DNA of 64,000 nt from Escherichia coli (GTDB taxonomy: Bacteria; Pseudomonadota; Gammaproteobacteria; Enterobacterales; Enterobacteriaceae). Made by a program: the position numbers. Positions within the stretch are counted from its first letter, which is position 1, and each line of letters opens with the position of its first letter. Where the stretch lies: the NCBI RefSeq assembly GCF_045037415.1, contig NZ_CP173440.1. One strand, written 5' to 3'. Below are positions 1 to 3,000 of the stretch, in pieces.

Positions 1-3000
1 AACAATGCTTATTCACCAATTTACCCAGACCCCGATGAACTGACAATTTTTGGCGTGGTGACTCATTGGGTTCATCGTGCCCGGGGTAATCTGTAATGTA
101 TGCTCTGGCGGATGTGAACAGCTTTTATTGCAGTGTTGAGAAATGCTTCAGACCCGATTTACGCGATAAACCAGTGGTCGTCCTTTCTAACAACGACGGC
201 TGCGTTATAGCTCGTTGTAAACTGGCCAAAAAATTCGGCATTCCTATGGGTTTACCCTGGTTTAAGTTGCGTGAGCAGCGCTTCCCGGAGCCCGTGATTG
301 CCTTCTCCAGTAACTACGAGCTGTATGCCAGCATGAGCGCCAGAGTACATTTCTGCCTGGAGGAATTATCATCCCGTGTCGAAGAGTATTCCATCGATGA
401 GTCTTTTATTTGGGCTGGTGGGATTGATAACTGCATGACGTTTGAGGAATACGGACATCAGCTAAGGGATCATGTTTTCCGCTGCACTGGACTGACGATA
501 GGGGTAGGCCTGGCCCCTACAAAAACCCTTGCGAAAGCCTGCCAGTATTCCAGTAAGACCTGGCCCCAGTTCGGAGGGGTACTCGCACTGACTGCAGGCC
601 AGCGTAATCGGATAGATAAGATGCTTTCTCTGATGCCGGTAGAGGAGGTGTGGGGGGTTGGTGGACGAACCACAAGTAAGCTTCATGCAATGGGCATAAC
701 CACTGCGCTGGAGCTGGCTCGTACTAACCCTGCATTCATAAGACGAAACTTCACCGTAGTTCTTGAACGAACAGTGAGGGAACTACGGGGAGAAAGTTGT
801 ATCGACCTGGAGGATGCCCCGCCACCAAAACAACAGATCATATGCAGCAGGAGCTTTGGGCAGCGTATAACAACGTATGAATCCATGCGGCAGGCAATTT
901 GCCAGTATGCTGAACGTGCTGCGGAAAAATTGCGCCAGGAACGTCAATACTGCGGTCAGGTATCAGTTTTCATAAAAACCTCGCCTTTTTCAAAACATGA
1001 ACCCTATTACAGCAAAGTCTCCAGCGAACAGCTCTGCATTCCATCACGTGATACGCGGGACATTATCGCGGCGGCTGGCCGGGCTCTGGATAAAATCTGG
1101 AAAGAAGGACATAACTATGCAAAGGCGGGAGTCATGCTCAACGATTTCCGTCCCTGCGGAGTTACCCAGCTATCGTTATTTGATGAAGGGAGGTCGTATG
1201 CAAACAGTGACGCGCTCATGAACGTACTGGATACGATAAACAACTCAGGCAAAGGCAAAGTATGGTTTGCCGGTCGTGGCATCGCACCGGCGTGGTCAAT
1301 GAAGAGAGATATGCTCTCTCCAGCCTACACAACGAGGTGGGACTCGATACCGATCGCTACACTCTGAGTTATCGCAATCAGGAAAAATGCCTTCCGTCTG
1401 CTGGTGGTTGATATTTGCTCTGGTGTTACCATTTGGGTATAATGTAATGACCAAATGGAGGTTTGCTATGAAAACTTTTAGTTTGTCCTCAACTCCAGCC
1501 AGACCACAGCGCCTCTGGCAGGTTGCCGGGTTAAATAATGCTGATGGTGTAGCGCTCCTGGGCCAAATCAATGAAGGCCTGGACGGGAAGGTGGTGAACC
1601 GGATCACTGACTGGGCCAGAATAACCCAGAATGACCTGAGAAAAATGTCCGGTATCCCGTCAACCACATTTAGCCGCAGTGTGAAGGCACGTTTTAACCC
1701 GGAACAAAGTGAACGTCTGGTACGGATTATCCGCGTTATTGATCGGGCGGTAGATTTGTTTGAAGGCGACAGGGAAGCCGCACAGAAGTGGTTGAACGAA
1801 CCTAACCGGGCATTGAGCTGGAAAGTGCCAGCAGACCTGATGGCATCCGAAACGGGAGCCTATGAGGTCATTAAGCTGATTACGCGTCTGGAGCATGGGG
1901 TGTACTCGTGATCCTCTACAGGCTGACGAAAACAAAGTATCTTTCTACGGCCTGGACCGGATATGGTGCGAAAGAGGCTGGTGGGCGCTGGAATAGCGTG
2001 GGGGTGTCAATGGTATATGTCTCCGAAACGGCATCACTAACGATGCTGGAGACCCTGGTACACCTGCATGCGGCACAGATAATGGACTCTTTCACGCTAC
2101 TGAGTATCGATGTGCCTGATGAACTGATACAAAGCGCAAACATGGATGAATTACCGGGCAACTGGGCTGATGAGGATGCGCCTCAGGAACTGGCTGATTA
2201 CGGAGATGCCTGGTCATTTACCAGGAGCTCGGTTGCACTGCGTGTTCCCTCAGCCTTATCGCCGGTAGAGTTCAATTATCTGTTAAATCCTGAGCACCCT
2301 GAGTTTTACGGGATCGTGCAGAAGGCTCAACAGATACCGTTCCGGTTTGATAGTCGTCTTAAACCTGACAGGAAGTGAAGCAAGAGAGGATAGGGCGCTG
2401 TCATGATGCCTGGCGCTCCTGCCCGGTGTCACATAAAAAAGCCCGCCAGCGGCGGGCAAAGACTACACACAGCTATTACAGGATGATTCAGGCAGTTTCT
2501 TCGTAAACGTTGTAATCCAGTTTTGCTCCACTGTAATTCTGCAGACTACGGGCTTTATTCATCGCGCAGCTGAACGCATTCGAACGATCGCCTGCACTCC
2601 CGTTATGCCCATAGCGGGCAATTTCATACGGTTTCTCATAACTGCATTCTTCCAGCACAATAAAGGCTCCCGGTTCACTGGTCAGCAATTCGAAACCAAG
2701 ACCTGCGGCTTTTGTATTCCTTAGCTGGTAATATGCAGTGAGTGTCATAATTGATTCCTTAAATAATACCGATACAAAGATATTTCTACAGGCATTGTTG
2801 AGTCTGTGAAATTGCTGATAGTTCAGAGTGCCTGTAAGTAATAATAACTTATTCAAGTGGCGCGTCAATTGGTAAATAACCTTACCGTCATTATATTTTG
2901 AAAGAAATACAATCAGGAAAAGTGACTTTAAAAATCTCTTTCGGATATGACGCTACTGATATCTGATATTGCCTGGAGAATTTTGTCATAGGCGTAGACC

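Follow-up and report, generated by a model that had tools for sequence, protein, structure and literature searches.

The closest described counterpart of the locus analyzed here is knaAT of the Klebsiella pneumoniae virulence plasmid pRJF293 (RJF2_RS26210-15). In a 2024 study (PMC10896132), expression of KnaT led to growth arrest and a drop in cellular NAD+, and KnaA neutralized KnaT; toxicity and rescue were both shown in E. coli and K. pneumoniae. The two genes are cotranscribed, as seen by RT-PCR on the pRJF293 allele. Deletion of knaAT caused a gradual loss of pRJF293 from K. pneumoniae, and its addition stabilized pSK in E. coli. The stabilizing effect is slow, with loss appearing only after about 200 generations. 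The authors of that study proposed knaAT as a target for plasmid curing (PMC10896132).

The solved homologues of KnaA and KnaT are toxin-antitoxin complexes. The closest of them, for both proteins, is VPA0770-VPA0769 of Vibrio parahaemolyticus (PDB 8GUG), which is likewise a RES-Xre pair and assembles into 4:2 heterohexamers. VPA0770 is 38% identical to KnaT (E about 1e-31 to 8e-27), and VPA0769 (8GUG_B) matches KnaA over its full length (E = 7e-17). ParT, from the ParST system of Sphingobium sp. YBL2 (6D0H/6D0I), is 41% identical to KnaT over 123 amino acids. The motifs GGRWN, LET, and VPS align between these two toxins, and both belong to the NCBIfam subfamily Res_ParT_toxin; the antitoxin ParS was not detected when solved structures were searched by sequence with KnaA. 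Xre-RES of Pseudomonas putida KT2440 (6GW6, 9R35) pairs a two-domain antitoxin with a RES toxin, as KnaAT does, forms a 4:2 complex, and represses its own promoter through an inverted repeat, but it is more distant in sequence (toxin E of about 1e-14; antitoxin E = 5e-3). MbcTA of Mycobacterium tuberculosis (6FKG) is the most remote of these solved homologues. MbcT gave a marginal, profile-only match to KnaT (E = 2e-3), and its antitoxin matches KnaA only across the C-terminal toxin-binding domain that the two share (PF09722; E = 1e-3). NatT was not detected in the sequence comparison with KnaT.

We analyzed a 64,000-nucleotide stretch of an E. coli plasmid (NZ_CP173440.1), referred to below as the window. 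An IncHI1B/IncFIB plasmid of K. pneumoniae matches it at 99.99 to 100% identity, and the record of the parent plasmid is named a hypervirulence/NDM-1 plasmid. The locus consists of the following features.

96 to 1367, plus strand: umuC, the upstream neighbor, given as context and lying outside the module (NCBIfam NF002955 UmuC, 698 bits)
1468 to 1911, plus strand: knaA, Xre-type antitoxin of 147 amino acids, with an Xre-like helix-turn-helix (HTH) at residues 30 to 89 and a toxin-binding domain at residues 94 to 144
1908 to 2378, plus strand: knaT, RES-domain toxin of 156 amino acids, starting with GTG, which overlaps the stop codon of knaA as GTGA
2441 to 2457, no strand assigned: G+C-rich hairpin GCCCGCCGCTGGCGGGC, 63 nucleotides past the knaT stop, with 7 of 7 pairs being G-C

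The first-pass annotation had proposed a RES-Xre type II pair here, and profile searches bore this out by finding both RES and DUF2384 domains, with Pfam and NCBIfam scores well over the curated cutoffs. In KnaT, the RES domain (PF08808) spans residues 3 to 148 (E = 8e-29), the match to NF049844 reaches 169 bits (E = 4e-50; cutoff, 110), and the top NCBIfam model is Res_ParT_toxin. KnaA carries an Xre-like HTH (PF20432; E = 5e-14) followed by a C-terminal Xre/MbcA/ParS (DUF2384) toxin-binding domain (PF09722; E = 9e-17), and it exceeds the cutoffs of both NF049845 (114 bits against 90; E = 4e-33) and TIGR02293 (117 bits against 57; E = 3e-34). All 156 residues of the toxin agree with KnaT of pRJF293 (WP_004026354.1). 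The antitoxin is identical to KnaA at 145 of 147 positions (98.6%), with the window carrying the V43/R102 allele (changes V43A and R102K). We are highly confident in identifying the locus as knaAT, a type II toxin-antitoxin operon that belongs to the RES-Xre family and is carried on a plasmid, and nothing was found that contradicts this. The module is already known, being published as knaAT, annotated as RES/Xre in RefSeq, and present with annotation in over 1,100 plasmid records.

The gene order also agrees with the RES-Xre family: the antitoxin comes first, on the same strand as the toxin, and the two genes overlap by 4 bp. As first described, both open reading frames lie downstream of umuC, which has Pfam matches to IMS, IMS_C, and DUF4113 and carries the same name in the annotation of NZ_CP072809.1; the intergenic region (1368 to 1467) measures exactly 100 bp. 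The overlap had been read as ATGA. The four bases at 1908 to 1911 are instead GTGA, since the toxin starts with GTG, and the resulting N terminus (MILYRL/MKLYRL) is common to the homologues and VPA0770. For knaA, we rejected a longer product of 174 amino acids from an in-frame ATG at 1387, preceded by the AGGA of a 12-mer discussed below, because the spacer would be only 3 nucleotides, all homologues begin with MKTFS/MKVFS, a GGAGG (1457 to 1461) stands 6 nucleotides ahead of the ATG at 1468, and the conserved -10 element is downstream of 1387. Minus-strand open reading frames at 1296 to 1667, 1660 to 1935, and 1916 to 2161 were taken as spurious; they are unannotated in the reference record.

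The operon layout in pRJF293 is the same as that in the window, and the DNA is 97.8% identical over positions 863 to 2456 (1,594 bp), which includes the gap with its Chi site, 12-mer, and paired boxes (see below). The surroundings differ. The window has a full-length umuC, whereas pRJF293 keeps only a 3' fragment of it and no upstream umuD. The plasmid analyzed here is conjugative (IncHI1B/IncFIB/IncR, MOBH), whereas pRJF293 is typed as nonmobilizable. At the other end, homology to pRJF293 stops at 2456, and IS1 follows the hairpin there. The hairpin has a T-run on the minus strand only and is clearly the terminator of the convergent minus-strand gene at 2488 to 2748; it probably also marks where the knaAT unit ends on its 3' side.

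Among 5,426 complete E. coli genomes, 33 carry knaAT, at 42 places in all and never on the chromosome; the locus is thus strictly plasmid borne in this species. About 1,120 plasmid records carry it at an identity of at least 95%. The suggestion that the module contributes to element maintenance agrees with the plasmid stabilization published for the identical toxin and nearly identical antitoxin (PMC10896132), and knaAT helps large virulence and resistance plasmids of K. pneumoniae to persist. Judging from the homologue structures (VPA0769-0770, P. putida Xre-RES, ParST, and MbcTA), KnaA and KnaT probably form a complex of four antitoxins and two toxins, in which the C-terminal domain of KnaA would cover the NAD+ pocket of KnaT formed by R27, E48, and S115. 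All three residues are present in KnaT and are invariant in four homologues. Translation of knaT may be coupled to that of knaA via the GTGA overlap. Upon plasmid loss, the antitoxin would no longer be resupplied, and free KnaT would use up NAD+, so that the plasmid-free cell would stop. The published stabilization was measured on pRJF293 and pSK, and the plasmid here is an IncHI1B/IncFIB hybrid. It also carries hok/sok (3297 to 3628), 1 kb downstream of knaAT.

Published work left the promoter and operator of knaAT unmapped, and the model that follows is new. Three features of the 100-bp gap are relevant.

1415 to 1443, plus strand: predicted sigma-70 promoter of knaAT, with -35 TTGCTC at 1415 to 1420, a 17-nucleotide spacer, and -10 TATAAT at 1438 to 1443
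1429 to 1436, plus strand: left CCAnnTGG box CCATTTGG, a candidate KnaA or KnaAT operator half that overlaps the spacer and the -10 element
1451 to 1458, plus strand: right CCAnnTGG box CCAAATGG, a candidate operator half that overlaps the Shine-Dalgarno sequence GGAGG at 1457 to 1461

The gap had been called promoter bearing. A generic scan called no promoter there because the -35 element matches only three of six bases, but the arrangement itself is conserved: TTGC, 17 nucleotides, and TATAAT, TATAGT, or CATAAT are kept upstream of knaA in five lineages (the -10 element is TATAAT in the window and CATAAT in pRJF293). We propose that knaAT is transcribed from this predicted promoter of its own. 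The two boxes form a perfect 8-bp inverted repeat, 21 to 22 bp apart, and a CCANNTGG pair at a spacing of 15 to 30 bp occurs nowhere else in the 64-kb window. Boxes of the CCAnnTGG type stand at the same position in homologues from Pantoea, K. quasipneumoniae/E. kobei, and C. freundii, in which the DNA farther upstream is unrelated, and the combination of twin boxes and -10 element recurs in five lineages. Two more distant loci lack the boxes, namely, an orphan Salmonella antitoxin (66% identical) and a Shewanella pair (39% identical). Because they are conserved in homologues with only 67 to 83% protein identity, the twin boxes are, on sequence grounds, the likely operator of KnaA. Our prediction is modeled on the autorepression of P. 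putida Xre-RES, whose operator is an imperfect inverted repeat (S4) in a 172-bp promoter region. The HTHs of KnaA, or the KnaA-KnaT complex, probably repress the operon at these boxes, which flank the -10 element and reach into the ribosome-binding site. We also considered, and rejected, the idea that the gap encodes a structured RNA or a terminator (fold z-score of -0.55, with only a 5-pair hairpin present).

By sequence, KnaT is nearer to VPA0770 and ParT than to the NAD+ phosphorylase MbcT, and more than one chemistry could therefore lie behind the drop in NAD+. It is conceivable, if not the reading that we favor, that KnaT is a mono-ADP-ribosyltransferase of the ParT/PrsT type that inactivates phosphoribosyl-pyrophosphate synthetase (Prs); the fall in NAD+ would then be indirect, through PRPP loss and substrate use, and not due to direct NAD+ phosphorolysis or hydrolysis of the kind suggested by the RefSeq product name. 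The ranking of the solved structures points this way, with VPA0770 (38% identity) ahead of ParT (2e-27), P. putida Res far behind (1e-14), and MbcT farther still (2e-3), as does the top NCBIfam model, Res_ParT_toxin. MbcT and NatT are phosphorylases, but ParT is an ADP-ribosyltransferase and VPA0770 is predicted to be one (PMC12457610), and the authors of the KnaT study call the mechanism of NAD+ reduction uncharacterized. On the other hand, NAD+ does fall when KnaT is expressed, and about 40% identity does not settle substrate choice in the RES family. ParT is known to modify Prs, whereas for KnaT just the drop in cellular NAD+ is known. The activity of VPA0770 is reported inconsistently, as it is a predicted ADP-ribosyltransferase in one account and is listed by another group among NAD+-depleting toxins. 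Caution is warranted with the RefSeq label "NAD+ phosphorylase" for KnaT, which comes from its most distant relative, MbcT, whereas its nearest relatives are ADP-ribosyltransferases, established or predicted. With either chemistry, the role that we assign to knaAT is plasmid maintenance.

It is unlikely that knaAT serves mainly in abortive infection or another anti-phage defense and not in plasmid maintenance. NAD+ depletion is common among abortive-infection effectors, toxin-antitoxin systems are widely proposed in reviews as phage defenses, and a CRISPR-associated Cas6 gene lies beside a helicase gene on the parent plasmid, some 7 to 9 kb upstream of umuD. However, neither KnaA nor KnaT matched any of 5,027 PADLOC models (PADLOC-DB 2.0.0) at an E value of 0.01 or less, and it is the stabilizing role for which there is direct evidence.

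Still less probable is that read-through from the SOS operon umuDC raises knaAT transcription and triggers arrest or death under stress, as in Legionella GndRX: although a Legionella RES-Xre system governs the outcome of genotoxic stress (PMC12457610), knaA begins 100 bp past umuC on the same strand with only the weak, terminator-like 5-pair hairpin and no significant RNA structure (z = -0.55) in between, and the junction is kept even with the truncated umuC of pRJF293, the adjacency is limited to one closely related lineage, the genes next to diverged homologues are unrelated (encoding TetR, hypothetical proteins, and a DNA methyltransferase), pRJF293, in which the module has been shown to function, has umuC only as a 3' fragment without umuD, a group II intron abuts umuD on the parent plasmid, and knaAT has its own conserved predicted promoter. 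A search for LexA boxes with at most one mismatch found none in the gap or close to umuD, and in total there were as many matches as chance predicts.

The gap holds two further elements noted in the first-pass annotation, a repeated sequence and a Chi octamer, and both are real.

1375 to 1386, plus strand: 12-mer CAATCAGGAAAA, one of four exact plus-strand copies (1375, 2910, 3964, and 5360)
1400 to 1407, plus strand: Chi octamer GCTGGTGG within the gap, part of a co-oriented array running from umuD to traD
1977 to 1984, plus strand: second Chi, inside knaT at codons A24-G25-G26, directly before the catalytic R27, and likewise part of the array

With one mismatch allowed, the 12-mer occurs at six sites against 0.5 expected. 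It does not form part of a longer repeat, as its flanks are unconserved across the six aligned sites, and a role as a regulatory element of the module was rejected, as the diverged homologues do not have it in their upstream DNA, although pRJF293 does. Neither the 12-mer nor the Chi site of the gap occurs with the diverged homologues of the module, and both are therefore features of the plasmid backbone around knaAT, not of knaAT itself.

Chi is abundant in the window as a whole (27 sites against 1.8 expected). Within the 13.6-kb segment from umuD to traD that contains knaAT, an interval chosen post hoc, 17 sites lie on one strand and 1 on the other, and this polarity is independent of gene strand. 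Syntenic segments have the same polarity relative to traD in the IncHI1 plasmid pHCM1 (10 to 0) and in an IncHI2 plasmid (11 to 0), although TraD is only about 46% identical. That knaAT lies within this co-oriented array, which is conserved among IncHI-type plasmids, is also new here. We tentatively suggest that the array may be a selected shield against RecBCD entering at the mobI/oriT end, marking umuDC-knaAT-hok/sok as an early-entering "establishment" region; the chance that this is correct is rather low. If it were, the addiction modules would be shielded and expressed early in a new host. The umuDC, knaAT, and hok/sok genes all point toward oriT. A search of the neighbors for leading-region markers (ArdA, PsiB, SSB, and others) returned only Hok with Pfam and only sok with Rfam, and a literature search on Chi arrays, whether of leading regions or of IncHI plasmids, yielded just broad comments that Chi is frequent in some plasmids and in phage P1. 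Homologues lack the Chi site inside knaT, because other synonymous codons specify the same peptide, or a similar one, at this point.

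The RES-Xre pair that the first-pass annotation placed at 1468-2378, directly downstream of umuC, is the already known knaAT locus. Its coordinates proved exact, as did the 100-bp gap said to carry a 12-mer and a Chi site:

96-1367, + strand, umuC (NCBIfam UmuC, 698 bits; Pfam IMS, IMS_C and DUF4113)
1368-1467, untranslated gap between umuC and knaA, exactly 100 bp
1375-1386, + strand, 12-mer CAATCAGGAAAA in the gap
1400-1407, + strand, Chi GCTGGTGG in the gap
1415-1420 and 1438-1443, + strand, predicted knaAT promoter read from the gap sequence (-35 TTGCTC, 17 nt, perfect -10 TATAAT)
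1429-1436, left arm of a candidate operator, CCATTTGG, half of a perfect 8-bp inverted repeat
1451-1458, right arm of the candidate operator, CCAAATGG, overlapping the Shine-Dalgarno sequence
1468-1911, + strand, knaA antitoxin, 147 aa, ATG start, GGAGG at 1457-1461
1908-2378, + strand, knaT toxin, 156 aa, GTG start

The four bases shared by the two genes (1908-1911), previously read as ATGA, are GTGA because the toxin start codon is GTG. This start is backed by the homologues and by the RES toxin VPA0770, all of which begin MILYRL or MKLYRL. Profile searches, the check proposed for the pair, found both expected domains, and the assignment therefore stands. KnaA has an Xre-like HTH (PF20432, 5e-14, residues 30-89) and an Xre/MbcA/ParS toxin-binding domain (formerly DUF2384; PF09722, 9e-17, residues 94-144), and it matched TIGR02293 (3e-34) and NF049845, "type II RES/Xre antitoxin" (4e-33), all above the curated cutoffs. 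KnaT consists almost entirely of a RES domain (PF08808, 8e-29), matched NF049844, "type II RES/Xre toxin" (4e-50), and contains R27, E48, and S115, which are invariant among four homologues.

Across its full length the window shares 99.99-100% identity with Klebsiella pneumoniae plasmid phvKpST395_NDM1_1657 (NZ_CP072809.1, 38795-102794; typed as IncFIB/IncHI1B/IncR, MOBH, MPF_F), here called the parent plasmid. In that record the first gene of the pair is labelled an Xre/MbcA/ParS antitoxin (WP_004181895.1) and the second a "RES family NAD+ phosphorylase" (WP_004026354.1). The toxin is identical (156/156, same protein accession) to KnaT of pRJF293 (RJF2_RS26215), and the antitoxin differs from KnaA at two residues (V43A and R102K). 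At the DNA level, window positions 863-2456 are 97.8% identical to pRJF293, a pLVPK-like virulence plasmid (segment L003, 12416-14006). This homology starts mid-umuC (863), so the characterized knaAT copy is flanked by a umuC remnant; the homology breaks off precisely at the hairpin behind knaT, and an IS1 comes next. KnaT halts growth in both K. pneumoniae and E. coli, KnaA relieves this arrest, the two genes are cotranscribed by RT-PCR, and cellular NAD+ falls on KnaT expression (PMC10896132). Deletion of knaAT led to gradual loss of pRJF293 from about 200 generations, and pSK::knaAT was stabilized in E. coli C600 (PMC10896132). These results, obtained with an identical toxin and a nearly identical antitoxin, support the suggested role in element maintenance. 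The locus occurs in about 1,120 plasmid records at ≥95% identity, and the exact antitoxin and toxin proteins of the window are each found on at least 1,000 contigs. In E. coli it is only plasmid borne (42 occurrences, spread over 33 of 5,426 complete genomes, 0 chromosomal). Given the published match and this wide occurrence, the earlier finding was correct and describes a known system. It also has a second addiction module as its neighbour, the type I toxin-antitoxin locus hok/sok (3297-3628; Rfam sok, 96.9 bits; Pfam Hok/gef, 3e-19), 1 kb further downstream.

The promoter claimed for the gap is a prediction from its elements and their layout. The inverted-repeat arms bracket the -10 element. 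We compared upstream regions with those of diverged homologues from Pantoea agglomerans pPAB02 (antitoxin 83% and toxin 80% identical), K. quasipneumoniae pKPC_CAV2013 and Enterobacter kobei (proteins identical to each other; 68% and 72%), and Citrobacter freundii pB18196_2 (68% and 67%). All retain the order TTGC, -10, and Shine-Dalgarno, with two CCAnnTGG boxes 21 to 22 bp apart, and in all the DNA further upstream is unrelated. Only 8 CCANNTGG sites occur in the 64-kb window, and the knaAT pair is the only one spaced 15 to 30 bp. Two other loci lack the boxes in their upstream DNA: an orphan antitoxin of 66% identity on a Salmonella IncHI1B plasmid, and a Shewanella pair of 39% identity. 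The former (p10-3184.1, segment L009, 801-1244) is an Xre-type antitoxin without an intact downstream RES gene and may be an anti-addiction remnant. Promoter and operator stay predictions, since published work mapped neither (PMC10896132). By analogy with solved homologues, the KnaA C-terminal domain would block the NAD+ pocket of KnaT in a complex typically of 4:2 antitoxin to toxin, which would probably autorepress its own promoter via an inverted repeat.

That KnaT acts as a ParT-like ADP-ribosyltransferase is a tentative reading, and we lean mildly against it. Its nearest solved relatives are VPA0770 (closest; 38% identity, profile E=1e-31) and ParT (41%, E=2e-27), whereas Pseudomonas putida Res is much further away (E=1e-14), MbcT is only marginally related (E=2e-3), and NatT was not detected in the sequence ranking. 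ParT ADP-ribosylates Prs and VPA0770 is predicted to be an ADP-ribosyltransferase, while MbcT and NatT are NAD+ phosphorylases (PMC12457610); the RefSeq product name therefore stems from the relative furthest removed. In the KnaT study itself, the mechanism of NAD+ reduction is called uncharacterized (PMC10896132).

A tie of knaAT to SOS or genotoxic stress through umuDC read-through is consistent with a gap without a strong terminator and with a Legionella RES-Xre system linked to genotoxic stress (PMC12457610). However, this reading is unlikely: the umuC-knaAT adjacency is confined to one closely related lineage, and in pRJF293, where knaAT works, only a piece of umuC precedes it. Moreover, no more than about 90 bp separate the umuD start codon from the end of a group II intron (ltrA reverse transcriptase/maturase; parent plasmid segment L001, 10101-11673, immediately to the left of the window), and no LexA box was found within one mismatch near umuD; the umuDC promoter and its SOS control may thus have been displaced. 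A role for knaAT in anti-phage defence is disfavoured, as neither protein matches PADLOC models.

The 12-mer and Chi in the gap are marks of the plasmid backbone and not parts of the maintenance module. Four exact + strand copies of the 12-mer lie within 4 kb, all intergenic (1375-1386, 2910-2921, 3964-3975, and 5360-5371), with a fifth upstream in the parent plasmid (L001, 4553-4564); their alignment showed no conserved flanks. The copy at 3964 forms one arm of a hairpin with an 11-bp stem (3968-3996).

Chi occurs 27 times in the window versus 1.8 expected. The umuD-traD segment (414-13458, within 1-13.6 kb) holds 17 sites on the + strand and 1 on the - strand, against 0.3 to 1.0 expected under Markov models of order 1 to 3 for this interval chosen post hoc. 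The array begins in umuD and finishes in traD (L001, 11883-25451), with the same polarity over + and - strand genes. In the syntenic block mobI-mobH-traD-DUF4400-S49-NERD...hok of IncHI1 pHCM1 and of an IncHI2 plasmid, whose TraD is about 46% identical, the Chi sites keep this polarity with respect to traD (10 to 0 and 11 to 0; segments L011, 19366-30688, and L012, 19330-33448); the IncC plasmid examined had no such pattern. The Chi in knaT (1977-1984) is made by GCT GGT GGG (A24-G25-G26), where homologues elsewhere use other codons and lack Chi. RecBCD recognizes Chi when approaching from its 3' side, so the array would act on enzyme entering from the mobI side, presumably the location of oriT as in related MOBH elements. 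In the umuDC-knaAT-hok block, every + strand gene points to that side as well; in combination with the Chi polarity, this suggests that knaAT may sit in a RecBCD-shielded, early-entering region. We found no description of this co-oriented Chi array in the searchable literature.

Between knaAT and traD lie eight conserved genes without any Pfam match:

2488-2748, - strand
4231-5205
5403-5780, - strand
6470-7537
7633-8040
8164-8352
8895-9251
11913-12971, - strand

In the parent plasmid, a Cas6/CasE-like gene beside a helicase gene (L001, 2831-7011), about 7 to 9 kb upstream of umuD, may belong to a plasmid type IV-A3 CRISPR-Cas system. At the other end of the window (about 49000-64000; segment L004, 34064-49000) lies a plasmid-borne paralogue cluster, shared with pRJF293, that resembles a backup set for zinc starvation (Zur-type). 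Its members carry the annotations hemB, dihydroorotase, threonine-tRNA ligase, carbonate dehydratase, folE2, dksA, GTP-binding protein, transcriptional repressor (two genes), cysS, and zigA.
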